DNA of 41,495 nt from positions 1-41,495 of the forward strand of contig CAZBBK010000052.1 of NCBI GenBank assembly GCA_964490075.1, in the 5' to 3' direction. Under the pieces are notes generated by a model. The model had not been told where the DNA came from. It was given only the letters and a program-made list of their open reading frames with translations, and ran no database searches. Shown in pieces: positions 5,234-41,355 of this stretch (position 1 is its first letter; the number at the start of each line of letters is the position of its first letter). The position numbers were made by a program, and so were the translations under genes. This stretch comes from an uncultured Gemmatimonadota bacterium (GTDB taxonomy: Bacteria; GCA-2686955).

Positions 5234-5270
5234 GCGGACCAGATCGGGAACGAGAAGCCGCGAGGTGCAG

Positions 5271-13061: not shown

Positions 13062-13096
13062 GGACCCCCTGTTCGATGGGGATCATGGTAACCGAA

Positions 13097-16466: not shown

Positions 16467-17551
16467 TGCAGCGACTCCACGAGCGCCTGCGCGCGGGTGA
16501 TGGCCTGGCCGGGCAGCGGATCGCAGACGTCGACCTCGATGACCACCGAGGACAGGTCCGCGGCTTCCAGGGTCGTCCTCATCTGCGGAATGTAGAAGAG
16601 CTCGGGCTCGCAGAACTTGACGAGAAAGAAGAGCACCGCGCCGGCATCACCGGCCTCGGCCAGAGCCGCCAGGTGGGCCGCGCGCGCTTGCACATCGGCG
16701 CCGCGAGTCGAGTCGGGGGGAGCGCTCAGCAGGCGCTCGGCCATGCGGCGCAGCGGATCGTCGGCCGATCCCGCCCCGTAGAGCCGGCGCCCGGCGCAGG
16801 CCATGTCGTCGCCCACCACCGTGCCGCCCGCCTCCTCGATGGCGTCGAGAATGCCCATCGGCTCGGGGACCAGGCCCGAGATCACGATCCCCGGGGCGCT
16901 GCTCGAGCGCGCCCTTTGCTCGCCCAGGTGTCGCCCCACGATCGCGGTGAACCGCTCGGCCGGCAGATACTCGCGGGAGCGAACCAGGCGGTAGTAGTCG
17001 CGCTCACCCAGCTCGATGTTGCGGCGCGCGGCGAGCAGCCGAGCCAGGCAGGCGTCGGCTTCCGCCTCGCGATCGATGGCCTGCCGCAAGGCGACCTCGT
17101 CGGGGCGCACCCCGGCGATCTCCACGAGGCGCTCGAAGAACGCGTCGAGCTCCCGGACCAGGAAATCGGCGCGCGCCTCGAGGCTGCCGCCCCGAGGGCA
17201 GTAGAGGGTCAACACGGGACGCGGCTCGGCGACCAGATCGGTGAGCAGGGAGCCCATGCCCTGCAGACTGTCGCAGGCGTGGGGCACGACGATCAGATCG
17301 GCGACCTCGAGACCGCCGTCGAGCAAGAACGACAGGCCGCCGCGAACGATCGAGCAAGCGTAGGCCTGCAGATGCCGATCGCCCGATGCGGTGCGCAAGT
17401 CCGGCGGTCCCCAGACCTCCATCGGCAGAATGCCGAAGGCACGCAAGAGCTCGCGCGAGTAGTGGATCGGGTAGACCGCGGCGATGCGGCCGCCGCCCTG
17501 CTTCCAGGCGGCGGCGACTTCCTTGCGGGAGGGTAGCGAGAGGCTCGTCAC
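16463..17551 (-). CDS. 2-hydroxyacyl-CoA dehydratase family subunit (HgdB/FldC/BcrC-like)
   Basis: ELLRAFGILP, LQAYACSI, PHACDSLQ, VVGDDMACAGR, VKFCEPE, TRAQALVE. ATGA overlap with the alpha subunit. Confidence 0.9.
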   Translation of the reverse strand: MTSLSLPSRKEVAAAWKQGGGRIAAVYPIHYSRELLRAFGILPMEVWGPPDLRTASGDRHLQAYACSIVRGGLSFLLDGGLEVADLIVVPHACDSLQGMGSLLTDLVAEPRPVLTLYCPRGGSLEARADFLVRELDAFFERLVEIAGVRPDEVALRQAIDREAEADACLARLLAARRNIELGERDYYRLVRSREYLPAERFTAIVGRHLGEQRARSSSAPGIVISGLVPEPMGILDAIEEAGGTVVGDDMACAGRRLYGAGSADDPLRRMAERLLSAPPDSTRGADVQARAAHLAALAEAGDAGAVLFFLVKFCEPELFYIPQMRTTLEAADLSSVVIEVDVCDPLPGQAITRAQALVESLQ

Positions 17552-17558
17552 GGGCGTG

Positions 17559-17586
17559 ATCCTACCCCACCGCGTCGGGCAATCAA
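17559..17586 (-). promoter_or_regulatory. Putative sigma70 promoter for the dehydratase operon (likely leaderless transcript)
   Basis: Minus strand TTGATT-N16-TAGGAT, with the -10 box 7 nt upstream of the GTG start and no Shine-Dalgarno. Confidence 0.4.
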
Positions 17587-17669
17587 CCGGTCACCGGGGT
17601 CTGGGCGGGATCGCCGGGGCTCTCGACAAGGGAGCAACGGCCCTCGAGCCCAGGCCATCCACCCCAGGT

Positions 17670-20852: not shown

Positions 20853-20867
20853 TGCTCTTCCTCTTCG

Positions 20868-21854
20868 CTACCGGTTGGCCACGACACTATCGGGGTCGAC
20901 GATCGTCACGCTCAAGGTATCGGAGCTCGCCGAGTCCTCCAGCTCTCCGGAAGCGATCAGGTAGTAGTTGTAGGTCTCCCCCACCACGAGCGCCGCCGCG
21001 GTGTCGGCGTCGACATAGCCGGTCATGTCTGTCGGCACCGATCCGATCAGATCGTACTGATCGTCGCCGCCCTCCAAATCGCGATAGACGCGGAACCAGC
21101 GTTCCGATGCCGATTCGTCCGACCACTGCAGCTCCACCACGCGACTGCCGTCGCTCTGCTGCGCCGACGTGAAGACCGGCGGATCGAGATCGTACTCGAC
21201 CCAGGCGAAGTAGGCGGCGCTGGTGTCGGGATCTTCGAAAGAGCTGCGCACGGTCACGCGATAGAAGTAGCCGGTCCCGTCCACGACGCTGGCGTCGACG
21301 TAAAAAGTGTCGCCGGTGGTACCGACTGGCGCGAACTCGAGTCCATCGTCGGAGCGCTCGACGAGGAATTCGTCCAGGTGGTCGGCGTTGTTGTGCCAGC
21401 GCAGCTCGGCGGAGGATACCGTCAGGATCAGGGCGGCCAGGGAGTCCGGCGCATCGAAACGGGCGGTCTTGACGTCGGCGTGGGCACGGCTGTGCAGACC
21501 GTTCTCCAGGAAGGAGCCGATCGTGTAACGGTACTCGCTGTCCTCGGCGACCAGGGTGTCGACAAAGGCGTTCTGGGCGGCGCTCTGGATGGTCCCCAGG
21601 AGCACTCCGTCGCGAAGGACCTTGTAGCAGAGGAAAGCGGCGGCGTCGTTGGCCGCCCATTCGAAGCTCACCCGATTCGAGCGCAGGTTGCCGTTGGCGT
21701 AGCCGACCGAGAAGTCGCCGTCGCTGCCGAGTTGATCGGTCGCGATGGTCGGAGTAGTGACGCGGCCGATCAGGTCGATCTGGGTGATTCGAGTCGCGTC
21801 GAGCGAGCACGCCGCCACCAGCGCGAGCGGCGCCAATACGAGAGCAAGGCGCAT
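20868..21854 (-). CDS. Lipoprotein with fibronectin type III-like repeats
   Basis: AAGGAGG RBS; MRLALVLAPLALVAAC lipobox; three FN3-like repeats (YKVLRDG..FVDT..YRYTI; FLVERS..YVDAS..YFYRV; FRVYRD..YVDAD..YNYYL). Confidence 0.75.
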   Translation of the reverse strand: MRLALVLAPLALVAACSLDATRITQIDLIGRVTTPTIATDQLGSDGDFSVGYANGNLRSNRVSFEWAANDAAAFLCYKVLRDGVLLGTIQSAAQNAFVDTLVAEDSEYRYTIGSFLENGLHSRAHADVKTARFDAPDSLAALILTVSSAELRWHNNADHLDEFLVERSDDGLEFAPVGTTGDTFYVDASVVDGTGYFYRVTVRSSFEDPDTSAAYFAWVEYDLDPPVFTSAQQSDGSRVVELQWSDESASERWFRVYRDLEGGDDQYDLIGSVPTDMTGYVDADTAAALVVGETYNYYLIASGELEDSASSDTLSVTIVDPDSVVANR

Positions 21855-22051
21855 CGTGGCCTCCTTCTGGACGCGGCCGAACGAAGCCTGGGGAGGGTGT
21901 CGGATCGCGTTTCGGTCCTTGCGACCCTCCCCTGGTCCGGCCACGTGGAATGCGGGAGGGTAGGCGCGGTGATGATGGAAGTCAATGACGGGGGAAGTCG
22001 GCGCAAATGGCAGAGGTTACGCTTCCAGGCAACTCAACCCCGGAGTCATCC

Positions 22052-27796: not shown

Positions 27797-28120
27797 ATGC
27801 CGAATCGCCAGCCTGCTCACCGCGAGGCAGAGATCTTGAGCATGCTGCGCTTCCTCTTCGCGGCCGAGTCGGCACGACTCCACGGCGCCCGTGTGGTGCT
27901 TTTCGGCTCCCGGGCCAAAGGCACCGCGCGACCGCGCTCCGATTTCGACGTAGGCGTGCTCGGAGAGTCGCCCATGCCGCTGGCCGACTTCTACGCGCTT
28001 GCGGACGCGATCGAAGCCCTGTCGACGCTTCATACCATCGACTGGGTCGATCTCATGCGCGCGGAACCACGATTCCGCGCGGCGGCGCTGGAAACCCACG
28101 CGGTACTTCATGAACCGTGA
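27797..28120 (+). CDS. Minimal nucleotidyltransferase (MNT) antitoxin
   Basis: VLFGSRAKGTARPRSDFDVGV = GSX10DXD; IDWVDL. 107 aa. Confidence 0.88.
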   Translation: MPNRQPAHREAEILSMLRFLFAAESARLHGARVVLFGSRAKGTARPRSDFDVGVLGESPMPLADFYALADAIEALSTLHTIDWVDLMRAEPRFRAAALETHAVLHEP

Positions 28121-28499
28121 GCATTGGATCCTCGATGACTTCGCGTCGGCTTTGGATCGGCTTCAGGAGGCGCTGGATCCACCGGCCACCGAGGATCTGA
28201 TCAAGGCCGGTTGCATTCAGTACTTCGAGCTCTGCTTCGAGCTCGGCTGGAAGAGCATCAAGGCGGTCGGAGCCACGCACGGTCTCGAGGAGTGCCTGTC
28301 GCCACGCTCCTGCTTGAAGCAGGCATTCGCCCAGGGCTGGATCGACGATGAGACCATCTGGCTCGAGATGCTGGATGCCCGGGACCGGATGTCTCACACC
28401 TACGATTCGGCACGCGCCCTGGAGGTGTACGCCTCGCTCGGGGCCTTCCTGGCGTGCCTGCGCACGCTCCGTGAGCGGCTGCAGGCAGCAATGGACTGA
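28110..28499 (+). CDS. HEPN toxin / HI0074-family nucleotidyltransferase substrate-binding protein
   Basis: IQYFELCFELGWKSIK, SPRSCLKQAF, WLEMLDARDRMSHTYD (RX4HXY). Start ATG 28110 overlaps the MNT 3' end; 129 aa. Confidence 0.88.
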   Translation: MNREHWILDDFASALDRLQEALDPPATEDLIKAGCIQYFELCFELGWKSIKAVGATHGLEECLSPRSCLKQAFAQGWIDDETIWLEMLDARDRMSHTYDSARALEVYASLGAFLACLRTLRERLQAAMD

Positions 28500-28505
28500 C
28501 TTCCT

Positions 28506-29060
28506 TCAGCGCCCCCCCGGCTCCCCCACCACCGCCAACAGAATCTCCCCGGCGACGTGATCCCCGAGCGATTCGCTGACGTGGTGCAGCAGCACCGGGC
28601 CGTCGGGGGCGACCACCAACGCCCCTCCCTGCTGCCAGGGATCGCCCTGCAAGCCGGTCTGGCGATGGCCGGACGCGTAGGCGCGCAGCCCGCCGATCAG
28701 GGAGCTCAGGCTGAAGGTCTTGGCGACGCCGCGCCGCAGCCCGGCCGCCTGGTAGGTCTTCAGGTCGGGGTCCGAGAGGATTCGCGCGGCGAGCCCGGTC
28801 TCTTCCTGGAAGGCCTCGACATAGTGCGCGGCGCCCGACCCGATCACCGTCAGGTCGGCGCCGAGCGATCTCAGCTCCGTTTCGATGCCGCGCAACTGCA
28901 CGGCCTGCTCGCGGCAGACCACTCAGCCGAAATGGCGCAGCCAGACCAGCACCGCGGGCCCGGCGGCTCCCTCCCAGAGGTCGCCGAGGCGAATGTCGAT
29001 CCCGTTGGTGTCGCGAGCGTGGGCGTCGGCCAGGCGAGACAGATCGAGAGTGGAAGGCAT
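28506..29060 (-). CDS. Peroxiredoxin-like (AhpC/TSA-2, SelL/SelU/FAM213-like) selenoprotein with UxxC motif
   Basis: ORFs 28923-29162 and 28506-28922 are in the same frame, separated only by TGA (28923-28925), reading WLRHFG-U-VVCREQA. Downstream DPDLKTYQAAGL and QGDPWQQGG are family motifs. GGAG RBS before ATG 29060; 184 aa. Confidence 0.85.
28886..28920 (-). promoter_or_regulatory. Candidate bacterial SECIS element
   Basis: Just 3' of the UGA: UGCCGCG(28916-28910)/CGCGGCA(28892-28886) stem with inner GCA/UGC and G-first loop GGCCG starting 18 nt after UGA. Alternative stem GGUCUGC/GCAGGCC. Confidence 0.55.
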
Positions 29061-29128: not shown

Positions 29129-29815
29129 ATGGCCGAATCACAAAAATCCCCCGCCCTCGCATGGCTCGCCCTGATCGCCGCCGTCGCCCTCCTGGTCGCC
29201 GCGGCCTATGGCGCCGCCCTGATCCTCGGACGATCGCTGAACCCCCCCGCCGCCGCCGGCACAGCGGACCTGACGATCGCTCCGCTCTCCCTGGCCCCGC
29301 CCGCCGGGCTGCTGCTGATCGCGGCCTTCCTGGTCGGCATGTCGTGCTTCCGCGTCTTCCAGGCCCTGCAGGCCCCGACCGAGCCCGCCGCCGCCGAGCC
29401 GAAGCCGGCGGCCGAGGAAACCCCGCCGCCCCCGACCGAGGCCGGAACCCTCAGCCTGCTGAACATCCTGCAGCGCGAGGGACGGCTGATCGACTTCCTG
29501 CGCGAATCGGTCGCCTCTTACAGCGACGAGCAGGTCGGTGCCGCGGTGCGCGCCATCCACGCCGACTGCCGCCGGGCCCTCGACGAGCACGTCGACATCG
29601 AGCCGGTGCTGGCCGACGCCGAGGGGGACCGGGTGGTGATCGAGGCCGGCTTCGACCCCAGCGCGGTGCGCCTGAGCGGCAACCTGTCGGGCGATCCCCC
29701 CTACCGCGGCGTGCTCCAGCACCACGGCTGGCGCATCACCAACACCCGGGTCCCCGAGCGGCCGCCCTCGCAGGACGCGCGCATCCTGGCCCCGGCGGAG
29801 GTCGAGATCACATGA
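29129..29815 (+). CDS. DUF2760-family protein with two N-terminal TM helices (GrpE-like C-terminus inferred)
   Basis: LLNILQREGRLIDFLRE, QVGAAVRAIHADCR, GFDPSAVRLSGN, GVLQHHGW, ILAPAEVEI; hydrophobic N-terminal segments; ATGA overlap with the Hsp70-like gene. Confidence 0.85.
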   Translation: MAESQKSPALAWLALIAAVALLVAAAYGAALILGRSLNPPAAAGTADLTIAPLSLAPPAGLLLIAAFLVGMSCFRVFQALQAPTEPAAAEPKPAAEETPPPPTEAGTLSLLNILQREGRLIDFLRESVASYSDEQVGAAVRAIHADCRRALDEHVDIEPVLADAEGDRVVIEAGFDPSAVRLSGNLSGDPPYRGVLQHHGWRITNTRVPERPPSQDARILAPAEVEIT

Positions 29816-31644
29816 GCGGCTTCGACTCCGCCGCTGGCGACGCGCGCTTTTGCGTCGGCATCGACCTCGGCACCACCAACTCCTGCGTCGCCTACGTGCC
29901 CGCCGAGGGCGACGACGACGCCGTGCGGGTGCTCGAGATCCCGCAACTGGTGCGCGCCGGCGAGGTGGCGCCCGCCCCCCTCCTCCCCTCCTTCCTCTAC
30001 ATGGTGGCCGAGGCCGAGCACCGCCCGGGGGCCTGGCGCCTGCCCTGGCAAGACGAGGACGCCGACCGGGTCACCGGCGTGGCGGCCCGCGAGCGCGGCG
30101 CCGAGGTGCCCGATCGACTGGTCGCTTCCGCCAAATCCTGGCTCTGCCACGGCGGCGCCGACCGCGAGGGACCGATTCTGCCCTGGGAGGCCCCCGAGGG
30201 AGTCCCGCGGGTGTCGCCGGTCGACGCCGCGGCGGCCTATCTCGGGCACCTGCGCGACGCCTGGAACGCCGTGATGGCGCAAGGCGATCCGACCTGCGAG
30301 CTGGAGCGCCAGGCGGTGGTGCTCACGGTGCCGGCGTCGTTCGACGCGGTGGCGCGCGAGCTGACGCAGCGGGCGGCGGAGCGCATCGGCCTGCACGAGC
30401 CGACCCTGCTGGAGGAGCCGCAGGCGGCCCTCTACGCCTGGATCGCCGAGCGCGGCGCGACCTGGCGCGACGAGCTGCGGGTCGGGGACCGGCTGCTGGT
30501 GCTCGACGTCGGGGGCGGCACCACCGACCTGAGCCTGATCCAGGTCGCCGAGGAGGAGGGCGAGCTGACCCTGGAGCGGGTCGCGGTCGGAGACCACATC
30601 CTGCTCGGCGGCGACAACATGGACCTGACCCTGGCGCACGTCGCCGCCCAACGCCTGGCCCCGGGCGGGCGTCTCGACCGCTGGCAGATGCGGCAACTGG
30701 TTCACGCCTGCCGCGCCGCCAAAGAGGCGATCCTGACCCACCCCGAGGCCGGCCCGCGCCCGCTCACGGTGGTCGGCCGCGGCTCCTCCCTGATCGCCTC
30801 CACGCTGCGCACCGAGCTCACGCCGACCGAGACCGAGGCGGTGCTGATCGACGGCTTCTTCCCGCGCTGCGAGCCGGCCGCGCGCCCCGAACGGCGCCTG
30901 GGCGGCCTGCGCGAGCTGGGCCTGCCCTACGCCGCCGACCCCGCCGTGACCCGCCACCTGGCCGAGTTCCTGGGCCGCCGCGACGCGCCGCCGAGCGCCC
31001 TGCTCTTCAACGGCGGGGTGATGAAAGCGGCGCGCCTGCGCGGGCGGGTCGCGGAAGTGGTGGGCGGATGGACGCCAGGACCGGCGCCGAGACTGCTGGA
31101 GCCGGCCAGCTTCGACCTCGCGGTGGCCCGCGGCGCGGCCTACTACGGGCGGGCGCGGCGCGGCCAAGGAGTGCGCATCCGCGGCGGCACCGCGCGCAGC
31201 TACTACATCGGCGTCGAGGCGGCGCGGCCGGCGGTGCCCGGCATTCCGGCGCCGCTGCTGGCCCTCTGCGTCGCCCCGCAGGGCATGGAGGAGGGCAGCG
31301 AAACGCGGCTCGACGAGCGCGAGCTCGCGGTGGTGGTCGGGGAGCGGGCGGAATTCCGCTTCTTCTCGTCGACCCGCCGCCCCGACGATCGTCCCGGCCA
31401 GGTGATCGAGGGCTGGGAGAACGACGAGATCCAGGAGCTGAGCGGCATCGTGACCGCCCTGGAGAGGTCGGAGGAGCCGGACCCACTCTCGAACGCCGAG
31501 ACCAACCAGGCGCGCGGCACCGTGGTGCCGGTCCAGCTCCACACCCGCGCAAGCGAGATCGGCACCCTCGACCTCTTCTTCCTGGGGCGCGACGAGGGGC
31601 AGCGCTGGCGCCTGGAGTTCGACGTGAAAGAGCACCGGGAGTAG
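29812..31644 (+). CDS. Non-canonical Hsp70-family protein (short paralog)
   Basis: GIDLGTTNS, LTVPASFD, LLEEPQAA, DVGGGTTDLS, GGDNMD, LFNGG, AVARGAAYY. Start ATG 29812; 610 aa. Confidence 0.9.
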   Translation: MSGFDSAAGDARFCVGIDLGTTNSCVAYVPAEGDDDAVRVLEIPQLVRAGEVAPAPLLPSFLYMVAEAEHRPGAWRLPWQDEDADRVTGVAARERGAEVPDRLVASAKSWLCHGGADREGPILPWEAPEGVPRVSPVDAAAAYLGHLRDAWNAVMAQGDPTCELERQAVVLTVPASFDAVARELTQRAAERIGLHEPTLLEEPQAALYAWIAERGATWRDELRVGDRLLVLDVGGGTTDLSLIQVAEEEGELTLERVAVGDHILLGGDNMDLTLAHVAAQRLAPGGRLDRWQMRQLVHACRAAKEAILTHPEAGPRPLTVVGRGSSLIASTLRTELTPTETEAVLIDGFFPRCEPAARPERRLGGLRELGLPYAADPAVTRHLAEFLGRRDAPPSALLFNGGVMKAARLRGRVAEVVGGWTPGPAPRLLEPASFDLAVARGAAYYGRARRGQGVRIRGGTARSYYIGVEAARPAVPGIPAPLLALCVAPQGMEEGSETRLDERELAVVVGERAEFRFFSSTRRPDDRPGQVIEGWENDEIQELSGIVTALERSEEPDPLSNAETNQARGTVVPVQLHTRASEIGTLDLFFLGRDEGQRWRLEFDVKEHRE

Positions 31645-31647
31645 CGA

Positions 31648-33135
31648 GTGACGCGCCGCTCGGGACTGGCGCTGGCGCTCGGCCTCGCGATCGCCGCCAC
31701 CACCGTCATCGCCGGCCCGGTCACCGGAGGAATCATCGCCGCCCTCGGTCTGGCGCCCCTGGGCGTCGCCGTGATGCGTCGTTACCCCTGGGCTTCCATC
31801 GGCATCTACCTGGTCCTGATTCCGTGGGTAGTGCGCGCGAGCGAAATCGAGTTGGGGACGGGGATTCCAAATCTCGACTTTGAACGCCTCGGAATCTATG
31901 GCATCTCTTCGTTGGTGCTCTTCCAGGTCGCCACCAGAAAGCGTCGCTTGCTGCGCCTGACCCACTTCGACCGCATCTTCCTGCTCTTCATCGCCATGAT
32001 GCTGATCTCCGGCGTGATCATGGGCCAGTCGCCGCCGCAAACCGTGCGTCAAGTGGTTAGCGAAAACTGTTACCCCTTCGCGCTCTACTTCTCCATGAAG
32101 CACCTGGTTCGCCGGCCCGGCGAGGTGCGGGCTCTGGCGCTCTTCGCGGTGGCCGCGGCGGTGCTGCTGGCGGCGCACGCCTGCGGCGACCAGGTGCTGG
32201 GTCTGGGACTCGGCAAGGTGGAGCGGGAGTCGATCACCACCTACCAGCAGCTCGCCGAGCTCGGCGGCTATCACAGTTTACAAGAAAACCGTGCCGCGGG
32301 ACCGCTGGGGAACTCGGTGACGCTCGGAGTGTCGTTGATTCAGGGGATCGTGCTGGCCTTCTTCTTCATCGTCAACGAGCGGGGACGAACGCTGCGGCTG
32401 TGCATGGTCGCGGCCCTGGGACTGTGCGGCATCGCCTTGCTGGTGACCTACACGCGGTCGGTCTACATCGCCCTGGTGCTCTGTGGCCTGCTGATCTGGA
32501 GCTGGATGCCGCGGCTGCGGCGCGCGCTCGCGGTGGCGACGATTTTGAGCGGCATCGCGGCCCTTGGCTACCTGTCGACCGTGATCACCGACGACGACAA
32601 CCGGCTGCTCAAGCTCGGATCGATCGAGGAGCGGATCGGCGCCTACTCGATCACCTACTACTTCGTGAAGGCCAGTCCGATCATCGGCCACGGCTACGGC
32701 TACCAGACCTACCCCCATCTGAAGTCGCAGAACCTGGTCCCCAGGCTGGACTTCGTCAGCCGCCACAATCAGTTCGTGAACAACGCACCGCACAGCGAAA
32801 TCGGTCGCATCTTGATCACCATGGGGGTGGTCGGGTTGGCGATCTTCGGGCGCTACCTGTGGACCATGTTCGGGGAGCTGGCGGATTTCCGTCGCCACCT
32901 GGAGGAGCTGGAGCTGCAGGCGATGCTGCCGTGGATCGTCGCCGCCGCCTGCGGCATGATCGCCTTCTACGGGCAAGGCCCCTTCACCGACATGACAGCG
33001 ATGCACTACGCCGACACGGTCGTCTTCCTCTTTCTCGGGGCGGTGCTCGGGGTCTACGAAAACGCCCGGTTGCGGCGCCGAGCAGGCCCCCGGGAGGGGT
33101 CGAGTGCGGCTATAGTGGATCATAGCAACAGATGA
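31648..33135 (+). CDS. O-antigen ligase / Wzy-like polymerase family membrane protein
   Basis: Many TM helices; RAAGPLGNSV, TYTRS, SIEER, PIIGHGYG, APHSEI..LITMGVVG (Wzy_C pattern). Confidence 0.82.
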   Translation: MTRRSGLALALGLAIAATTVIAGPVTGGIIAALGLAPLGVAVMRRYPWASIGIYLVLIPWVVRASEIELGTGIPNLDFERLGIYGISSLVLFQVATRKRRLLRLTHFDRIFLLFIAMMLISGVIMGQSPPQTVRQVVSENCYPFALYFSMKHLVRRPGEVRALALFAVAAAVLLAAHACGDQVLGLGLGKVERESITTYQQLAELGGYHSLQENRAAGPLGNSVTLGVSLIQGIVLAFFFIVNERGRTLRLCMVAALGLCGIALLVTYTRSVYIALVLCGLLIWSWMPRLRRALAVATILSGIAALGYLSTVITDDDNRLLKLGSIEERIGAYSITYYFVKASPIIGHGYGYQTYPHLKSQNLVPRLDFVSRHNQFVNNAPHSEIGRILITMGVVGLAIFGRYLWTMFGELADFRRHLEELELQAMLPWIVAAACGMIAFYGQGPFTDMTAMHYADTVVFLFLGAVLGVYENARLRRRAGPREGSSAAIVDHSNR

Positions 33136-34466
33136 GAAACTGCGATTCCCCGTCGATTCGAGTGCTCTACGCGGCCCAGGAGCCTGGGCCGCTCGATATG
33201 ATCTATCTGCGCAGCCTGGTGGCGCAGACCGGAATCGAGACCACGCTGCTGAGCTTCGACCACCGCCCGGCGTCGCCTTGCGATCCCGGCGCCATCGAGG
33301 GCCTGCGGGTGATCCACGAGCCCGGCTACCGCCCGGGGTACCGCCACCGCGTGGCGCGCAATCCGGCGACCATCGCCGCCAATCGATTCGACCTGATGCG
33401 GGCCGAGCGGCGCATGCTGCGGAGTCTGCGCCGCGCGACGGCCGAGCTTCACCCCGCTCTGATCGTGGCGCCGATCGTGCACATGGCCGGCCTGGCGGTG
33501 GCGCGCTCCGGCTTCCATCCCTGGATCTGCATGCCACGCGGCTGCGATCTGCTGGTGGTCCCGCAGCGCTCGCCGCTGCACCGGCGCCGGGCGCTGCGCG
33601 TGCTCCGCTGCTGCGACGCGATCGTCACGCCGAGCCTCTTCGCGCGCCGAGCGGTGCACGATCTCGACCCGGCCCTGGCGGCCAAGACCTACGAGGGACC
33701 GTACGGGGTCGACACCGCCTGCTTCCGCTTCGACGGGCACGCGCGGGCCGAGTGGCGGGCGGCGCACGGTCTCGGCGACGCCGAAGTGCTGCTCTTCAGC
33801 CGCGGCTTCCGCGACGTGTATGGCTTCGACACCTTCGTCGAGGCCCTCGCCCTGGCTCGCGTCCGGCGTCCCAAACTGCGCGCCCTGGTGCTCGGCGACG
33901 CCGCGGCACCCGAGGCGGCGGCGGCACGAGACCTGGTGCGCGGACGAGGAATCGGCGACATCGTCACCTTCGTGCCGCCGCTGCCTCACCGGCGGATGCC
34001 GCGCATCTACGCGGCCGCCGACCTCTTCGTGCAGACCAATCGCAGCGACGAATGTCCCGCCTCTCTGCTGGAAGCGCTGTCTTGCGAACGGCCGGTGGTC
34101 AGCACCGCGCTGGCCTGCTACCGGCCGATGCTCTGTGACGACATCGATGTCATCGAGCAAGCGCCGGTCGGCGACGCCGGCGCGCTGGCCGATTGCTTCG
34201 ATCGCTGGCTCGACGCGGACATGGAGCGCCGTGCCGCGCTGCTCCGCCGCGGTCGCCAGGTGGTGTGTCGCCACTACGAGTGGCAAACCAACTTCCCGGT
34301 GCTGGTCGAGCAACTGCGCCAGACCATCGCCGTGGCGGCGGGCCAGCGCCCCTGGCTCGACCCCGAGCAACGACCGGCCGAGATCCTGGAGCGCATGAAG
34401 AGCCGCGCGGCAAGGAGTGGAGCATCTCGATCCCAAGGAGCGAGAACAACCGTGGGGGGCCCGTGA
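33132..34466 (+). CDS. Glycosyltransferase family 4 (GT-B)
   Basis: RGCDLL, YGVDTACF, YAAADLFVQ..SDECPASLLEALSCERPVVST. ATGA overlap with the upstream gene. Confidence 0.88.
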   Translation: MRNCDSPSIRVLYAAQEPGPLDMIYLRSLVAQTGIETTLLSFDHRPASPCDPGAIEGLRVIHEPGYRPGYRHRVARNPATIAANRFDLMRAERRMLRSLRRATAELHPALIVAPIVHMAGLAVARSGFHPWICMPRGCDLLVVPQRSPLHRRRALRVLRCCDAIVTPSLFARRAVHDLDPALAAKTYEGPYGVDTACFRFDGHARAEWRAAHGLGDAEVLLFSRGFRDVYGFDTFVEALALARVRRPKLRALVLGDAAAPEAAAARDLVRGRGIGDIVTFVPPLPHRRMPRIYAAADLFVQTNRSDECPASLLEALSCERPVVSTALACYRPMLCDDIDVIEQAPVGDAGALADCFDRWLDADMERRAALLRRGRQVVCRHYEWQTNFPVLVEQLRQTIAVAAGQRPWLDPEQRPAEILERMKSRAARSGASRSQGARTTVGGP

Positions 34467-35149
34467 CCGAGCTCGAGACAAGGCAACCCTGTGCAAGTCT
34501 GGCCCGCGCCGCCGATCTCTTCGGCGCCTCGCGACGGGCCGAAGCGGAGCTGGAGGCGGTTCTGCAGCGGCTGCGCCTGCAGGATCCGGAGCGGCGGCCG
34601 CGCAGCATCGCGTTGACCGGCATCGCGCCCGGTTCGGGCACCAGCACCGTGGCGGCCGGGCTGGGCTGGCTGCTGGCGACACAGTATCGGGTGCCGGTGC
34701 TGTTGGTGGAGGCCGGCGCGCCGTGGACCGGCGAGGGAGTCGCCGGCGAAGCGCCGGGTGACACCGTCGGATTGTGCCAGCTCCTGAGCGGCGACGCGGC
34801 CGCGGGCGACGTTCTGGTCGCAACACAGTTCGACCGCCTGCGGCGGATTCCGCGCGGCGTCGGGGAGCCAGCATTCGCGCAGACCGACCTACCGGCGCTG
34901 CTCGCCGAGCTGGAGCAGGCCCACGGCGTGGTGCTGATCGACACGGCAGCGGTGCTGGTAGAGCCCCAGTCCGCAGCGCTCGGCGCCGCGGCCGGCCGCA
35001 CTCTGCTGGTGGCGCGCCACGGCAGCGCACGGCGCGCGGAGCTGCGGCGCGCCGCGGCCCTGGTCCAGGACAGCGGCGGCACCCTGTGCGGCGTGGTGCT
35101 CAACCGAGTCGACGACAGTCTGCCGGGGTGGCTGGCCCGGGCGCTTTGA
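34463..35149 (+). CDS. CpsD/CapB-like BY-kinase homolog, probably a pseudokinase
   Basis: SIALTGIAPGSGTST (Walker A without Lys), LLVEAG (A' degenerate), VLIDTAA (Walker B), GVVLNRV; no C-terminal Tyr cluster. Start GTG 34463 in a GTGA overlap. Confidence 0.8.
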   Translation: MTELETRQPCASLARAADLFGASRRAEAELEAVLQRLRLQDPERRPRSIALTGIAPGSGTSTVAAGLGWLLATQYRVPVLLVEAGAPWTGEGVAGEAPGDTVGLCQLLSGDAAAGDVLVATQFDRLRRIPRGVGEPAFAQTDLPALLAELEQAHGVVLIDTAAVLVEPQSAALGAAAGRTLLVARHGSARRAELRRAAALVQDSGGTLCGVVLNRVDDSLPGWLARAL

Positions 35150-35160
35150 GAGGGGGAGCG

Positions 35161-36672
35161 ATGACCGACCCATCGAATAGCCGACCCACCGCGGGCGACG
35201 CGGGACTGGGCCTCGACGCCGGCGACATCTTGCGCATCTACTTCGATCGCAAGCGGCTGATCGTCGCCATCGTGGCCGCGGCGACTCTGTTCACGACGCT
35301 GCTGACCTTTGTGATTCCGCGCACCTATGTCTCCAGCGTCGAGCTGCTGGTGGCCCGCAACGAGCCGGACGTCTCCGACAGCGACGCCACGCGGCCTCTG
35401 ACCGCCCTCAACCGGGGCGAGATGCTGGCGACCGAGGCGCAGATCCTCACGTCGAGCGGGCTGGTGGCGCGTGCTCTGGAAGAGCATGGCGATCTCGACA
35501 CGGCACCGACCCAGGTCAACCTGCTCAGCGGCGCGCTGCGCTATGCCGCCCTCGCGTTGCGGGCCGTCGGTCTGCTGGACGCATCCGACGATCCACTGGC
35601 GGAGCGGATCGACAACCTGGCGGCGCGCATCGAGGTCAACGATCACGTCGATGCCAACACTCTGGTCGTCGAGTACGGGCACGACTCGCCCGATGTCGCG
35701 CAGGCCGCCTTGAGCGCTTTGATCGACACCTATCTGCGCTTTCGGATCGACACTCTGCGACGTCCCGATCTGCTGGCGCGCTTCGAGAAGCGGGTGGCGG
35801 AGACCCGAGCACGGATGGACGAGCTGCTGGAGCAACTGAACCGCCTGCGCCGAGAGTCGGGGATGGTCGACCCCGAGATCGAGCGCGAGCGGGCGGTCAG
35901 CTACCTGGCCGATCTGCGCGAGCGGGCCAAGGATCTGGAAATCGAGCGCCACGCACAACGCGCCCGGGCCGCCAAGCTCGATTCGCTGATCGAGCGCAGC
36001 CCGCCCACCATCATGATCCAGAACGAGAAGGCCAGAAACCCCGACTTCACCTCGGTCAGCCGCGACGTGACCAACCTGGAGTCGAAACGTCGCAACAGTC
36101 TCTACCTCGAGGACGCGGCACCGCACGGCTGGACCGAGTCGCGACTCGAGCAGAGCCGCGAGCAGCTCGACGAGACCGAGGAGCTGGTGATCCGCTACGA
36201 GGTGGAAGGCCCCGATCCGCAGTACGCCGCGCTGCTCGACACCCGCAACGAGCTGGCCATCGACGTGGCGCTGATCGACGACCGCGCGCGTCTGGTCGGC
36301 CAAGCGATCGAGGCGGAGCAGATCCGAGTCCTCGATCTGAGCGGCTACGCCGACGCCATGGCGCGCATCGAAGAGGAGCTGAGCGCCGTCGCCGGCACCC
36401 ACCGCATCCACCTCGCCAAGCGCGAGGCGGCGATGCTGGCGGAAGCGGCGGAGCGAAGCGAGGTCAACGTCAAGGTGATCAAAGCGCCCAATCGGCCGGC
36501 CCGGCCGGCGGTCCCGCGCCTGGTGCCGATCGTGATCGCGGCGCTCGCGGCTTTTGCCTGCGCACTCGGTCTGGCGACCCTGCAGGCGCTGGTCTCGGAT
36601 CGGCTGCGCGGCGAGCGCGACGTGTGGGAGACGATCGGCGTGCCGGTGCTGGGGGCGATCGAGGAGGTTTGA
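35161..36672 (+). CDS. Polysaccharide co-polymerase (Wzz/GumC/Wzc N-terminal-type)
   Basis: N-terminal TM then PRTYVSSVELLV, TEAQILTS, long coiled coil, VKVIKAPNRPARPAVPR, C-terminal TM, IGVPVLGAI; 503 aa. Confidence 0.85.
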   Translation: MTDPSNSRPTAGDAGLGLDAGDILRIYFDRKRLIVAIVAAATLFTTLLTFVIPRTYVSSVELLVARNEPDVSDSDATRPLTALNRGEMLATEAQILTSSGLVARALEEHGDLDTAPTQVNLLSGALRYAALALRAVGLLDASDDPLAERIDNLAARIEVNDHVDANTLVVEYGHDSPDVAQAALSALIDTYLRFRIDTLRRPDLLARFEKRVAETRARMDELLEQLNRLRRESGMVDPEIERERAVSYLADLRERAKDLEIERHAQRARAAKLDSLIERSPPTIMIQNEKARNPDFTSVSRDVTNLESKRRNSLYLEDAAPHGWTESRLEQSREQLDETEELVIRYEVEGPDPQYAALLDTRNELAIDVALIDDRARLVGQAIEAEQIRVLDLSGYADAMARIEEELSAVAGTHRIHLAKREAAMLAEAAERSEVNVKVIKAPNRPARPAVPRLVPIVIAALAAFACALGLATLQALVSDRLRGERDVWETIGVPVLGAIEEV

Positions 36673-36713
36673 GGCTGGCTTCCCGGCGATTCCGAGAGCG
36701 CCGGCCTGGCGCC

Positions 36714-37001
36714 CAGGGTCCCGGCAAAGTCGCCGGGACCAGGCTTTGGTCTTCAGGCTTCGGGCTTTGGGCCCGGAGGGCGGACATCCGGGGCGGATCG
36801 CGTTGACCAGCTTGGTGGTGGGCAAACGCGCCGAGTGCAAGTCGGCGGGATCCCCCGATGTTCGAGCCGCGGACGCAGTGGACTCTTCTGTCCCCGCACC
36901 GGCGAAGACCGCGCGCTGGACCTCGCGTGACGACTCGGGTCTTCCGGAAGGCCGACACCTGAGGCCTGAAGCCCGGTCCCGGCGACTTTGCCGGAACCCT
37001 G
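36714..37001. mobile_element. 288-bp non-autonomous element (MITE) with 33-bp terminal inverted repeats and 10-bp target-site duplication
   Basis: Left end CAGGGTCCCGGCAAAGTCGCCGGGACCAGGCTT vs reverse complement of right end CAGGGTTCCGGCAAAGTCGCCGGGACCGGGCTT (2 mismatches). GCCTGGCGCC directly flanks both ends (36704-36713, 37002-37011). Confidence 0.85.
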
Positions 37002-37039
37002 GCCTGGCGCCCGACCTGCTGGATCCCGATCGATTATCC

Positions 37040-37068
37040 TTGAAATCTGGTGATGCCGTCATTAGATT
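37040..37068 (+). promoter_or_regulatory. Sigma70 promoter for the DUF4143 ATPase (leaderless transcript)
   Basis: TTGAAA-N17-TAGATT, then 6 nt to ATG 37075; no Shine-Dalgarno. Confidence 0.65.
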
Positions 37069-37074
37069 TCGCGC

Positions 37075-38313
37075 ATGATCTACAAGCTCCGTCTGCTCCA
37101 GCAGAAGTTGAGCGCGATGGTCAGGCGCTTTCCGGTGGTCGTGGTGACCGGTGCCCGGCAGGTAGGCAAGAGCACTCTGCTTCAGCACGTGCTCGCGGAC
37201 TGGGACCATGTGGTCTTCGATCCGGTTGTCGATGTTGCGGGGGCGAGAGAGGATCCGGAGCTCTTTCTCGACAACCACCCCCCTCCATTGGTTCTGGATG
37301 AGATCCAGTTCGCGCCGCAGTTGGTGCCGGTGATCAAACGGCGGGTCGATTCAGAACGCGACGAGCCAGGGCGATACGTGCTGACCGGTTCGCAACAATG
37401 GGCGGTCATGAAGGAGATCGGCGAGTCGCTGGCCGGGCGCGCGGTGTTCCTGGATCTACACGGCTTCAGCCTTGCCGAGATCGCGGATGCGACTCGATCG
37501 GATCACTGGCTCCGGCGCTACCTGGAGAACCCCGAGGCTTTCGTTGCACTGCTTCCTCCGCGCCTCACGACCCAGCGCACGCTCTACGAGCAGCTCTGGG
37601 CCGGCTTCCTCCCCGAAGCAGACACCCTCGAGCCGGATTGGATCGACGATTTCTACCGAGCCTATTTGCGCACCTACGTCGAGCGCGATGTGCGCTCGAT
37701 CGCCGACATCGACGATTGGCAGCAATTCGGTCGGTTCGTACGGCTCATCGCCGCATTGACAGCCACGGAGATCAACCACTCACAGCTCGGGCGAGAGCTC
37801 GGGATCACACCGCAAACCTGTCGCCGCTGGCTGGCGATACTCTCGGCGACATTCCAGTGGCACGAGATTCCTCCCTATCACGGCAACACGATCAAGCGCG
37901 TCAGCAAGAAGCCCAAGGGACACTTCTCCGACACCGGACTCGCATGCAGTTTGCAGGCGGTGTCCACCGCACGGGCTCTCGCCGGTCACCCGCTCACCGG
38001 TGCGCTTTTCGAGTCGGCGGTGGTTGGTGAGATTCGAAAGCTGTCGGCGACGATTCCAGCGCCCCCGAATCTCTATCACTGGCGCAGTCACGGCGGTGCC
38101 GAGGTCGATGTCATTCTCGAACGAGACGGTCGCTTTCACCCCGTCGAGATCAAGCTCAATTCGAATCCCGGCCGCGGCGCCTTGCGCGGTATCCGCGCCT
38201 TCCGAGAAACCTACACGAGGCTCGACATCGCGCCGGGGTTGATCATCTGCCCAGCGGATGAAGGCCGCAGGATCGGGGAGCGGGATGCTCTTCTACCCTG
38301 GGATAGCAGCTGA
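37075..38313 (+). CDS. AAA_14-family ATPase with DUF4143 (C-terminal PD-(D/E)xK-like) domain
   Basis: TGARQVGKSTL, LDEIQ, LTGSQ, ESLAGR, YLRTYVERDV, KKPK..FSDTGL, LFES, EVDVILE...PVEIK. Confidence 0.9.
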   Translation: MIYKLRLLQQKLSAMVRRFPVVVVTGARQVGKSTLLQHVLADWDHVVFDPVVDVAGAREDPELFLDNHPPPLVLDEIQFAPQLVPVIKRRVDSERDEPGRYVLTGSQQWAVMKEIGESLAGRAVFLDLHGFSLAEIADATRSDHWLRRYLENPEAFVALLPPRLTTQRTLYEQLWAGFLPEADTLEPDWIDDFYRAYLRTYVERDVRSIADIDDWQQFGRFVRLIAALTATEINHSQLGRELGITPQTCRRWLAILSATFQWHEIPPYHGNTIKRVSKKPKGHFSDTGLACSLQAVSTARALAGHPLTGALFESAVVGEIRKLSATIPAPPNLYHWRSHGGAEVDVILERDGRFHPVEIKLNSNPGRGALRGIRAFRETYTRLDIAPGLIICPADEGRRIGERDALLPWDSS

Positions 38314-38448
38314 CTCCCGCCCTCGCTTCGCTGCCCTGCGCGGACCCTTGGGCAGCGGATCATGGGCTGGACGGCGGATGACCCCGAGCCCCGCGAGGGA
38401 GTAGTCTCGCCTCTCCCTGATCCGCCGCGACCCCCACCCCGACCGCAG

Positions 38449-41355
38449 ATGTCCAGCGCTCCTCTTCCCACCGACCGCGCCGCCGACGTGATCGGCATCG
38501 ATCTCGGAACCACCAACTGCGCCGTGGCCTGGGCCTCGGGCGAGGCGATCGCCGGCGGCCGGGTGTCGATCCGGGGCTTCGACGTTCCGCAGCTCCTGCG
38601 CGAGGGCGAGGTCGGGCCGCATCCGGTGCTGCCTTCGTTCCTCTACTTCGCGCAGGGCGCCGAGGCGGCACCCGAGAGCTTCGCACTGCCCTGGCGGGCG
38701 CCGGACGACGACGACGCCCTGGAGGTGGTGGGACTGTGCGCGCGGGAGCTGGGCGCTCGCACCCAGGGGCGCCTGGTGGCCTCGGCCAAGTCGTGGCTCT
38801 GCCACGCCCGGGTCGACCGCGGCGCCAAGATCCTGCCCTGGGGCGGGGGCGAGGGCCAGGTCTCTCCGGTCGAGGCGTCGGCCCGTTACCTGAGCCACAT
38901 CCGCCGCGCCTGGAACCACGTGCATGCAGCGGCCGACGCGGGGCGAGCGGCCGAGCGCCAGGATGTGGTGGTCACGGTCCCGGCCTCCTTCGACGAGGCG
39001 GCGCGCGAGCTGAGCGTCGAGGCGGCGCGCCAGGCCGGCTTCGCCCACGTCACCCTGCTCGAGGAACCGCAGGCCGCGCTCTATGCCTGGATCGACCGCC
39101 TGGGCGACGACTGGGCGGCGACGCTGAGCCCGGGCCAGGTGATCCTGGTGGTCGATATCGGCGGCGGCACCACCGACCTGAGCCTGATCCGGGTCGGCGA
39201 GAGCGCCCGCGGCGAGGCGACCCTGGAGCGCTTCGCGGTCGGCCGCCACCTGATGCTGGGCGGCGACAACATGGACCTGGCGCTGGCCCACGTGGCAGAG
39301 AGCAGCATGGGCTCTCCCGCGCTCGACGCCCAGCGCTGGCAGGCGCTGACCCAGCGCTGCCGCGGCGCCAAGGAGCAGCTGCTGCGGCGCGGCGGTCCCG
39401 AGCGGCTGCCGGTGCAGGTACTGGGCAGCGGCAGCTCGGTGATCGGCGGCGCCCACAGCGCCGAGCTCGAGCGCGCCGACGTCGACCGGCTGCTGCTGGA
39501 CGGCTTCCTGCCCCTGGTCGAGGCATCTGCCCGCCCCCGCGAGGAGCGCCGCGGCGGCCTGCAGGAGCTCGGTCTGCCCTATGAGCCCGACCCGGCGATC
39601 ACCCGCCACCTGGCCGACTTCCTGGGGCGCCACGCCGCCCCGGGGGCCCCCCTGCTGGTGCCCGACGCGCTGCTATTCAACGGCGGCGCGCTCAAGGGCT
39701 CCGGGGTGCGGCGGCGCATCCTGCGCCAGCTCGAGCGCTGGGCCGAGGAGGCCGCCGCCACGCCGCCGCTGCTGCTCGAAGGTGCCCCCCTCGACCTGGC
39801 GGTGGCGCGCGGCGCCGCCTACTACGGGGCGGTGCGCCGCGGCCTGGGAGTGCGCATCGGCGGCGGGTCGGCACGCGCCTACTACGTGCAGGTGGAGCGC
39901 GACGCGGCGGAACGCCCTCCGGCCGGCGCCGAGGGGCCGGTCGAGGCCCTGTGCATCGCCCCCCGCGGCCTGGAGGAGGGCGAGTCGGTGCAGATCAGCG
40001 GCCACGACTTCCGGGTTCGCGCCAACCGCCCGGTGTCGTTCCAGATGCTGGCCTCGAGCGCCCGCGAGGGCGACCGCCCCGGCGACCTGGTGGCGGCGGC
40101 GCGCGCCTCGATGGAGCCGCTGCCGCCGATCTTGACCGTGCTGCGCTTCGGCAAGCCGAGCAGCCAGCGCCAGATCCCGATCCGCCTGGCCGCCCGCCTG
40201 ACCGAGGTCGGCACCCTGGAGCTGTGGTGCGAGGCGGTCGACACCGACCACCGCTGGCGCCTCGACATGCAGCTGCGCGGCGCCCTCGGCGGAGGCCCTT
40301 CCGGCGGCGCCGATCCCGATGCGCCGACCGACGCCGAACGTCTGCCCGAGCATCTGCTCGAGCGCGCGGGCGCCCTGGTGCGCGCCGCCCTCGCTCCCGC
40401 CGACCACGACCCGCCCCCCGGCCTCGACCTGCCCGCGCCGCCCTCGGCCGAGGGCCTGGCCCGGCAGCTCCCGCTGGTCCTCGACCAGCCGCGCGAGCGC
40501 TGGAGCCTGAGCACCGCCCGCCATCTCTGGACCGAGCTCTTCCAGCTGCGTGCCCGCCGCCAGGCCAGCGAGCCGATCGAGGCCCGCTGGCTGAACCTGG
40601 TCGGCTACTGCCTGCGCCCCGGCTTCGGCTACGCCCTGGATGACTGGCGCATCAACGAGCTCTGGAAGCTCTTCCATGGCGGCACGACCTGGGCGCGTTC
40701 GGACCGTTGCCGCGCCGAGTGGTGGACCTTGTGGCGGCGGGTCAGCGGCGGGCTCAGCGCGGGCCAGCAGAACCACGCTCTGGGGCAGATGGAGAAACTC
40801 TTGCAGCCAGCGAAACCCGCCGGGGCACGCAAGAAGCGCAAGGGGAAGTCCGGGGCCGGCGCGCCGTCCTCGCGGCGTCTGGCTGCCCGCGAAGGGATGG
40901 AGCTCCTGATGGCCGCGGCGTCGTTCGAGCGCATCGAGCCGGCACGCAAGGAGCGCCTCGCCGAGCATCCCCTACGATCCCTGTCCAAAGGGCAAGCCCA
41001 CCGTCAAGAGCTGTGGATCCTGACCCGCCTGGGCGCGCGCCGGCCGCTCTACGGTCCGGCCAATCTGGTGCTGCCGGCCGAGCGGGTGCAGCCCTGGATC
41101 GAGGCCCTGCTGGGCGCCGACCGGCCCGCCACGGGCGCTCTCGCCGACGCTTTGGTGTCGCTGGGGCGGCGCACCGGCGACCGGGTGCGCGACGTCGATG
41201 TCGAGCTGCGCGACAATATTCGCGGTCGCCTGGAGGCGGACGGCGCCGCTCGGCAACAGATCGCCGCCCTCGACGAGGCTTCCGACCTCGACACCGATAC
41301 CGCGGCGAGCCTCTTTGGCGACAGTTTACCGCCCGGGCTGGTGCTGCGGGGGTAG
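38449..41355 (+). CDS. Non-canonical Hsp70-family protein with C-terminal DUF3731-like helical domain (long paralog)
   Basis: GIDLGTTNC, VTVPASFD, LLEEPQAA, DIGGGTTDLS, GGDNMD, LFNGG; tail WLNLVGYCLRPGFG..DDWR, WWTLWRRVSGGL, LGARRPLYG, RRTGDRVRD, FGDSLPPGL. Start ATG 38449 (38362 possible); about 968 aa. Confidence 0.9.
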   Translation: MSSAPLPTDRAADVIGIDLGTTNCAVAWASGEAIAGGRVSIRGFDVPQLLREGEVGPHPVLPSFLYFAQGAEAAPESFALPWRAPDDDDALEVVGLCARELGARTQGRLVASAKSWLCHARVDRGAKILPWGGGEGQVSPVEASARYLSHIRRAWNHVHAAADAGRAAERQDVVVTVPASFDEAARELSVEAARQAGFAHVTLLEEPQAALYAWIDRLGDDWAATLSPGQVILVVDIGGGTTDLSLIRVGESARGEATLERFAVGRHLMLGGDNMDLALAHVAESSMGSPALDAQRWQALTQRCRGAKEQLLRRGGPERLPVQVLGSGSSVIGGAHSAELERADVDRLLLDGFLPLVEASARPREERRGGLQELGLPYEPDPAITRHLADFLGRHAAPGAPLLVPDALLFNGGALKGSGVRRRILRQLERWAEEAAATPPLLLEGAPLDLAVARGAAYYGAVRRGLGVRIGGGSARAYYVQVERDAAERPPAGAEGPVEALCIAPRGLEEGESVQISGHDFRVRANRPVSFQMLASSAREGDRPGDLVAAARASMEPLPPILTVLRFGKPSSQRQIPIRLAARLTEVGTLELWCEAVDTDHRWRLDMQLRGALGGGPSGGADPDAPTDAERLPEHLLERAGALVRAALAPADHDPPPGLDLPAPPSAEGLARQLPLVLDQPRERWSLSTARHLWTELFQLRARRQASEPIEARWLNLVGYCLRPGFGYALDDWRINELWKLFHGGTTWARSDRCRAEWWTLWRRVSGGLSAGQQNHALGQMEKLLQPAKPAGARKKRKGKSGAGAPSSRRLAAREGMELLMAAASFERIEPARKERLAEHPLRSLSKGQAHRQELWILTRLGARRPLYGPANLVLPAERVQPWIEALLGADRPATGALADALVSLGRRTGDRVRDVDVELRDNIRGRLEADGAARQQIAALDEASDLDTDTAASLFGDSLPPGLVLRG

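Follow-up and report, generated by a model that had tools for sequence, protein, structure and literature searches.

Among the described Hsp70 systems, HscA is a type of Hsp70 that is not known to need a nucleotide-exchange factor, and IscU carries a short conserved motif, LPPVK, that makes it a model for a dedicated partner protein; in Escherichia coli, DjlA is a membrane-anchored J-domain co-chaperone of Hsp70 that has been linked in the literature to capsule induction. Bacterial derivatives of Hsp70 are numerous and, according to excerpts of a 2026 review, nearly all of them are unexplained (PMC13580251). In Myxococcus xanthus, MXAN_5323 is a 925-residue Hsp70 distant from DnaK (PMC8265645). 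Here we describe a three-gene module located at positions 29129–41355 of a 41,495-nucleotide stretch of DNA from an uncultured Gemmatimonadota bacterium (contig CAZBBK010000052.1; the whole stretch will be called the window), which encodes a small membrane protein of the DUF2760 family and two Hsp70-like ATPases, named here HspA and HspB. This three-gene set is widespread and unstudied, and the copy in the window is a split variant of it. The explanation that we favour, with a probability of about 0.45, is that two specialised Hsp70 ATPases form a self-contained pair tethered to the membrane, that DUF2760 serves them as an anchor, adaptor or client of new fold, and that in this genome the set is split by an insert.

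The gene families are those named in the original prediction, i.e., PF10816 in the small protein, PF00012 in both long proteins (partial HSP70 matches of 54 and 66.5 bits) and PF12531 (DUF3731) in the tail of HspB, all according to Pfam. It had also been stated that these families usually occur together and have no defined function, and both statements agree with our results. A full-text search found no paper mentioning DUF2760 or DUF3731, and RefSeq names the genes on plasmid and chromid records "DUF2760 domain-containing protein" and "Hsp70 family protein". The DUF2760 family has at least 1318 proteins at E ≤ 0.001 (8000 candidates scored), the closest protein relatives being P0001, at 93%, and P0002, at 66%. 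When loci were sought with one genome per species, 594 relatives were present in the first 600 pattern matches; 80 of the loci were retained. These span Binatia, Planctomycetota, Myxococcota, Desulfobacterota, Verrucomicrobiota, Chloroflexota, Beta- and Gammaproteobacteria, and a Gemmatimonadota metagenome-assembled genome (MAG); the latter, locus L001, is the closest relative among the 80 loci (73%).

The loci were searched by tblastn with the window proteins, and the 61 with at least 5.5 kb downstream were considered informative. DUF2760, an HspA-like gene (A type) and an HspB-like gene with its tail (B type) follow one another in a row in 34/61, a number that includes L066, with a gap of approx. 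0.7–0.9 kb, and the frameshifted or fragmented loci L034, L044, L049, L054 and L071. The triad with a larger gap or an insertion is present in another 3/61 (L053, L065 and L076), hence all three families occur together in 37/61. As for the 19 shorter loci, an Hsp70 gene directly follows DUF2760 in 15, three end too early for a decision, and none was found in L001. The median spacing is 43 nt between DUF2760 and the Hsp70 gene (n = 56, five of the values being 1.7–1.9 kb because a fragmented A gene had been passed over) and 25 nt between A and B (n = 34). All-against-all clustering of 1008 open reading frames (ORFs) from the 80 loci revealed no fourth conserved gene. The module is real, conserved and uncharacterised. 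Two loci required closer reading: in L053 (12225–16596) approx. 2.4 kb, perhaps an insertion element, separate the N- and C-terminal halves of the B-type gene, and an apparent A-B fusion in L070 was discarded, given that a stop codon lies between the two genes.

HspA and HspB are 48% identical over 614 residues, which covers the whole length of HspA including its beta region, and each of them shows 24–26% identity to E. coli DnaK. Both proteins contain the motifs that had been pointed out in them (DLGTTN, EPQAA, D[VI]GGGTTD, FNGG, SAKSWLCH and ILPW); the VLLLD linker of DnaK is in neither, as was also noted. The aligned counterparts of D8, K70, E171, D194 and T199 of DnaK do not vary across 47 A-type and 40 B-type sequences; with its catalytic residues conserved in this manner, each of the two proteins should hydrolyse ATP, and both are likely active ATPases. 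Rows with internal stops (A type of L053 and L067; B type of L017, L066 and L071) were excluded, as was the mis-joined L070. In a tree with E. coli DnaK as the root, 47/47 A-type proteins, among them HspA from the window, form one clade with a support of 0.957, and all 40 B-type proteins fall outside it, the node that unites the B types being unsupported (0.046). Since the A types form one clade and the B types are all outside, the duplication that gave rise to A and B predates the spread of the module.

The original prediction considered that the motifs of the DnaK substrate domain were missing from these proteins, which is true of the sequence but not of the modelled structure of HspB. When the family profile was compared with PDB sequences, the nucleotide-binding domain (NBD) of DnaK was matched at 4.1e-21, over residues 75–312 only, and the substrate domain of DnaK gave no match. 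The AlphaFold2 model of HspB (pLDDT 84.3, pTM 0.83) is formed by a disordered N-terminus (residues 1–37), the NBD (42–492), a beta domain (506–637) and the helical DUF3731 domain (663–985), with a disordered stretch between the last two. Foldseek aligned this model to full-length DnaK (4b9q, 1.8e-22) and to 7krv_A, a lid-truncated docked DnaK, with a target TM score of 0.70 and a root-mean-square deviation of 5.8 over 635 columns; Sse1 (3d2e_A, 9.7e-17) was a general Hsp70-fold match, and 3c7n_B (5.3e-18) corresponds to Hsc70 in its complex with Hsp110. The superposition of HspB on the NBD and the beta part of the substrate-binding domain of DnaK indicates that a substrate-type beta domain was kept and that the helical lid was not. 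In the model, the lid of HspB is replaced by the unrelated helical domain DUF3731, for which no match better than E 0.28 was obtained with a profile of the tail against PDB sequences, and no usable look-alike in the ESM Atlas. HspA would also carry a beta domain, given its identity to HspB through that region, and it ends at residue 610, a few residues past the end of its alignment with the beta domain of HspB.

The third component, DUF2760, shows the architecture that was originally described for it, with two transmembrane helices and a linker: hydropathy reveals two hydrophobic 19-mers at residues 15–33 and 53–71, followed by a region rich in Pro and Ala. One or two hydrophobic segments were detected in 106/119 homologues. 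The conserved C-terminal domain of approx. 125 residues ends in PAEVEIT; in an alignment of 120 sequences it has 16 invariant columns, His144, Cys147 and His198 are retained in 119, 115 and 120 sequences, respectively, and an AE[VI]E motif is located 1–4 residues from the C-terminus in 112/120. Taken together, the anchor, the conserved domain and the conserved tail would fit a membrane-tethered protein that faces cytoplasmic partners. The AlphaFold2 model of residues 100–228 (pLDDT 90.9) consists of four helices followed by four short strands, and no structure in the PDB matched it with Foldseek at E ≤ 0.001 (best E 1.2); the best E against viral structures was 0.49, and the ESM Atlas gave no usable look-alike of the C-terminal domain. 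The soluble domain of DUF2760 has no detectable relative among solved structures.

The central claim of the original prediction was that this domain parallels the beta domain of GrpE, and a comparison of DUF2760 with GrpE by profiles and by Foldseek was advised. Neither approach revealed any likeness. When 120 DUF2760 sequences were aligned by hhalign with 88 diverse GrpEs (only 35–50% identical to the enterobacterial query), a probability of 0.2% and an E of 0.3 were obtained; against E. coli GrpE the probability was 0.35%, and the sole stretch aligned was the segment on which the claim had been built. In a Pfam scan at E ≤ 10, GrpE was detected in 0/35 DUF2760 members, and it was not among the 13 matches at E ≤ 10 of a profile of 35 members against PDB sequences. 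Likewise, no GrpE fold appeared among the 50 listed of the 256 PDB matches that Foldseek gave for the DUF2760 model. Because none of these tests, whether by sequence profile, Pfam, PDB profile or fold, supported the GrpE reading, the likeness does not exceed what chance would give and DUF2760 should be kept apart from the GrpE family; it is not a GrpE homologue.

A related question is whether DUF2760 could still be a membrane-tethered nucleotide-exchange factor that drives both Hsp70s, GrpE-like in function if not in ancestry. In favour of this, the module comes without any GrpE or J-domain gene. As had been noted for the J-domain, none is encoded in the window (none by Pfam in 29 ORFs, and a tblastn search with the J-domain of E. 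coli DnaJ was empty), and a tblastn search of the window with E. coli GrpE found no GrpE gene; in the 80 loci GrpE was found in 0/80 and a J-domain in 1/80, using E. coli queries that could miss very divergent forms. The sole J-domain-like sequence is in L044 (7642–7833), 2.1 kb upstream of DUF2760, with E 9e-09 to DnaJ. An exchange function would also suit the translational coupling of DUF2760 to HspA, the stop codon of the first overlapping the start of the second by ATGA, as well as the order of its domain, a helical part and then short beta strands, which is loosely like that of GrpE; moreover, the known exchange factors have several unrelated folds (compare excerpts of PMC13580251). Nevertheless, no likeness of DUF2760 to GrpE was found in sequence or in fold, and in NCBIfam both ATPases have their best partial matches in models of HscA (6.1e-25 and 3e-24), the type that is not known to need an exchange factor. 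These matches are far under the cut-off, and an identity of the two proteins as HscA (TIGR01991 / NF003520) was rejected, with 87.7 and 85.4 bits versus a cut-off of 620. We consider the exchange factor unlikely.

A peculiarity of this genome is that the module is split between A and B by a block of 6.7 kb. The two Hsp70 genes of the original prediction are not neighbours here: the A type is located directly after the PF10816 gene, the B type with PF12531 is not directly after A, and the 6.7 kb between HspA and HspB are filled by five other genes on the + strand (Table 1), the polysaccharide genes starting four bases after the end of HspA. In a tblastn search, homologues of the four polysaccharide genes were found in 0/80 related loci. 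The GC content is 0.646 for the Wzy-like gene and 0.624, the lowest of the region, for the AAA_14 gene, versus 0.73–0.75 for the module and 0.747 for the flanking Hsp70 genes. Given these two results, the polysaccharide/AAA_14 block is best explained as an insertion into the operon. Elsewhere 3/37 triads are interrupted, and none of the few interruptions observed in the module is larger than the block in the window. A repeat search around the insert gave the A/B paralogy only, with no flanking direct repeats that would mark a mobile element. The 400-nt gap between the Wzz-like and the AAA_14 genes is filled by an imperfect inverted repeat that could be an element resembling a miniature inverted-repeat transposable element (MITE), or a scar of the insertion; the predicted RNA fold of 36700–37015 (316 nt) has a z of −7.48 versus shuffles, and no Rfam family was detected in the window, inverted repeat included. 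A promoter-like site is present at 37040–37068, before the AAA_14 gene. For the BY-kinase-like gene, the GTG at 34463 is the last candidate start, the ORF itself opening at 34193. A homologue of the AAA_14/DUF4143 gene was also observed in L023, upstream of DUF2760 and on the opposite strand.

Table 1. Features of the module and of the inserted block in the window.
Feature	Position	Strand	Description
DUF2760 protein	29129..29815	+	228 residues; Pfam PF10816, E 1.7e-48, residues 106–226
HspA, Hsp70-like ATPase	29812..31644	+	610 residues; NBD and predicted beta domain, without helical lid; PF00012 partial
Wzy_C / O-antigen-ligase-like membrane protein	31648..33135	+	First gene of the insert; Pfam PF04932, 2.2e-13; GC 0.646
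Family-4 glycosyltransferase (insert)	33132..34466	+	Pfam Glycos_transf_1, 5.5e-17; NCBIfam PEP-CTERM/XrtA-type glycosyltransferase, partial matches
BY-kinase-like P-loop ATPase (insert)	34463..35149 (start uncertain)	+	NCBIfam TIGR01007, 2.2e-13, and TIGR03018, 8.1e-13, both under cut-off
Wzz / polysaccharide chain-length determinant (insert)	35161..36672	+	PF02706, 1.6e-06; TIGR03007, 2.1e-15, under cut-off; ATG at 35161
Imperfect inverted repeat	36713..37002	.	Arms of 55 nt, 84% complementary, 180 nt apart
AAA_14 + DUF4143 ATPase, last gene of the insert	37075..38313	+	Pfam 2.6e-41 and 9.6e-23; PADLOC PDC-S01, 2.5e-105; GC 0.624
HspB, Hsp70-like ATPase with DUF3731 tail	38362..41355	+	997 residues; PF00012 partial; PF12531, E 3.2e-77, residues 736–995

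The nature of the inserted genes raises the possibility that the module regulates or assists the production of an envelope polysaccharide, such as exopolysaccharide (EPS) or capsule, and that in this genome it has merged with its target genes. The Wzy-like, family-4 glycosyltransferase, BY-kinase-like and Wzz-like genes lie inside the operon, on the same strand and with overlapping or near-abutting ends, and in M. xanthus StkA, an unrelated Hsp70-like protein, negatively regulates EPS (excerpts of PMC4319316). Against this, the lack of homologues of the four genes in the related loci means that the envelope or EPS role suggested in the original prediction rests only on the insert of the window; the copies on plasmids and chromids are found in unrelated contexts (a defence island, conjugation genes and groESL); the lower GC content of the Wzy-like gene relative to the flanking Hsp70 genes points to a later insertion; and the deletion of MXAN_5323 in M. 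xanthus had wild-type swarming (PMC8265645). This role is decidedly unlikely. A supposed DUF2760 gene at the stk locus of M. xanthus turned out to be wrong: StkA is a 540-residue DnaK homologue located by an SCP2-like gene (PMC4319316).

The distribution of the module could also be that of a mobile anti-phage or anti-plasmid defence system. Its spread is patchy across many phyla, and copies of DUF2760 were detected on 11 records of plasmids or chromids, of which two are typed conjugative. One copy is flanked by genes that carry the annotations anti-phage DUF1156, anti-phage PLD-like, VapC and TIR. In the window, the AAA_14/DUF4143 gene inside the module matches PDC-S01, a candidate single-gene defence family of PADLOC, and a HEPN-type NTase_sub_bind gene is present upstream. 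Nevertheless, DUF2760 matches 0 PADLOC families, both ATPases match PDC-M61B only and weakly (4.9e-4 and 3.5e-5; PADLOC 2.0), and the module has no nuclease, toxin or other effector domain. DUF2760 gave no match in phages, and the other contexts of the module are housekeeping. In addition, B-type proteins of 924–929 residues with 81–96% identity are listed for named members of nine genera of Myxococcota (Myxococcus, Pyxidicoccus, Corallococcus, Archangium, Stigmatella, Vitiosangium, Cystobacter, Melittangium and Aggregicoccus), as would be expected for a stably inherited gene. A defence function is very unlikely. The length of 925 residues that recurs in Myxococcus and related genera is also that of the B-type gene of L047, whose record is titled Comamonas sp. 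KCTC 72670; its A/B gene lengths and spacing match those of the Myxococcus dinghuensis locus L033. The organism name of this record may not fit the contig.

For the pair of specialised Hsp70 ATPases tethered to the membrane, the mechanism that we infer is the following. DUF2760 would be the membrane-anchored adaptor of the module, keeping the A/B pair in place on the cytoplasmic side of the inner membrane or regulating it there; alternatively, it may be a dedicated client of the pair, as IscU is for HscA. The paralogous ATPases A and B would work on each other, as Hsp110 serves Hsp70, and if they do serve each other, J-domain and GrpE partners would be dispensable. A complex predicted for full-length HspA and the C-terminal domain of DUF2760, in runs without controls, scored 0.10 and 0.09 versus a mark of 0.32, which speaks neither for nor against such an interaction. 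The role of the module is likely a specialised stress or quality-control task and not general folding. A bolder version, improbable as a whole, is that DUF2760 is a membrane Hsp70 cofactor of new fold whose nearly invariant PAEVE tail docks into DUF3731 or into the beta domain, comparable to the docking of the EEVD tail of eukaryotic Hsp70 and Hsp90 into TPR co-chaperones, and that it acts at the inner membrane with an Hsp110-like A/B heterodimer, without a J-domain protein or GrpE. In this version, the conserved His144, Cys147 and His198 might contribute a sensor of metal or redox state.

The nearest experimental work deals with M. xanthus, in which a 925-residue protein with PF12531 and PF00012 shares 92% identity with the B gene of L033; MXAN_5323 is probably the B-type orthologue. 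Cells lacking MXAN_5323 showed normal growth, motility and predation; their survival after H2O2 was lower and they sporulated less, both phenotypes being mild, and the gene was mildly induced by H2O2 (PMC8265645). MXAN_5323 failed to rescue a dnaK mutant of E. coli, and its overexpression did not make it possible to delete MXAN_3192, the essential DnaK gene of M. xanthus (PMC8265645). In Vibrio cholerae, VC1373 and VC1374 both carry the annotation "DnaK-related protein", and excerpts of two reports list the VC1373-1375 operon among the genes repressed in biofilm and indicate that HapR activates the VC1375 promoter (PMC9201469, PMC10328515). These observations would count in favour of the polysaccharide role considered above; the orthology of these genes to the module is unverified.

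Several points weigh against the explanation that we favour. After DUF2760, only an A type is found in 9/61 informative loci and only a B type in 3/61, therefore an obligate A/B pair is not universal. In 12/61 there is DUF2760 without an Hsp70-like gene, and the closest relative, L001, has none in the 3.6 kb downstream; these orphan loci, which share no neighbour genes, indicate that DUF2760 can exist apart from the ATPases or that its partners are elsewhere in those genomes. The cytoplasmic location proposed for the C-terminal domain of DUF2760 derives from hydropathy only. As for M. xanthus, the orthology of MXAN_5323 to the B type is deduced from protein length, architecture and the name of the organism rather than from an accession, and the phenotypes of its deletion are common to the deletions of three unrelated atypical Hsp70s (PMC8265645).

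Other genes of the window deserve a brief description. Directly upstream of DUF2760, and divergent from it, there is an AhpC/TSA_2 antioxidant-type gene (28506–28922, − strand), a suggestive neighbour beside the H2O2 phenotype of the likely M. xanthus orthologue, and a single case. It is preceded by the HEPN-type NTase_sub_bind gene (27999–28499, + strand), possibly one half of a toxin-antitoxin pair. Further away, a Ser/Thr kinase of 1502 residues is fused to an AAA_16/NACHT-type STAND ATPase (4512–9017, + strand), and its gene adjoins that of an FHA-HATPase-receiver protein (9028–10515, − strand). Two HGD-D genes (2-hydroxyglutaryl-CoA dehydratase D-component) are located side by side at 15138–17590 (− strand), and three long ORFs, at 10467–13082, 19050–20867 and 20871–22016 (all on the − strand), have a GC content at third codon positions typical of coding sequence (0.83–0.86) and no Pfam match at E ≤ 0.001.

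From these results, the chaperone-like machine that was originally proposed stands as a conserved and uncharacterised set of three families, with a small membrane-anchored protein and catalytically intact Hsp70s, and loses the GrpE-like nature of DUF2760. For this window, the GrpE analogy is removed and the polysaccharide genes are an insertion and not part of the machine. The module is among the most regular of the bacterial Hsp70 derivatives, with three tightly spaced genes in many phyla and also on plasmids, and if the cycling of two Hsp70-type ATPases at the membrane without the classical helpers were shown, it would extend the Hsp70 paradigm.

Compared with the known systems, the module resembles DnaK-DnaJ-GrpE in the actin-like NBD of HspA and HspB, with the same catalytic Asp, Lys, Glu, Asp and Thr, and, as far as the model of HspB goes, in a beta domain docked as in the ATP-state structures of DnaK; it differs in the low identity of both ATPases to DnaK (24–26%), which lack the VLLLD linker and the helical lid, and in having a membrane protein of no known fold in place of the J-domain and GrpE genes. 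With HscA-HscB-IscU it shares being a small operon-encoded set around a specialised Hsp70, and its best partial NCBIfam matches are to HscA; in contrast, its score is 87.7 versus 620 bits, HscB, IscU and Fe-S genes are absent from its surroundings, two ATPases are present instead of one, and the partner is anchored to the membrane. The pair formed by Hsp70 and Hsp110 offers another parallel, i.e., two paralogous ATPases of Hsp70 fold, one of them with an enlarged C-terminal part, that possibly serve each other, and this analogy has been proposed for bacterial Hsp70 derivatives in general (excerpts of PMC13580251). Nevertheless, HspB shows no specific tie to Hsp110, and Sse1 was found only as a general match of the Hsp70 fold. 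MXAN_5323, unlike the module described here, was studied alone, apart from its DUF2760 and A-type neighbours (PMC8265645). Finally, DjlA would be analogous to DUF2760 as a membrane-tethered cofactor of Hsp70, the role that we propose for the latter; the two differ in that DUF2760 has no J-domain according to Pfam and no likeness to any solved fold.

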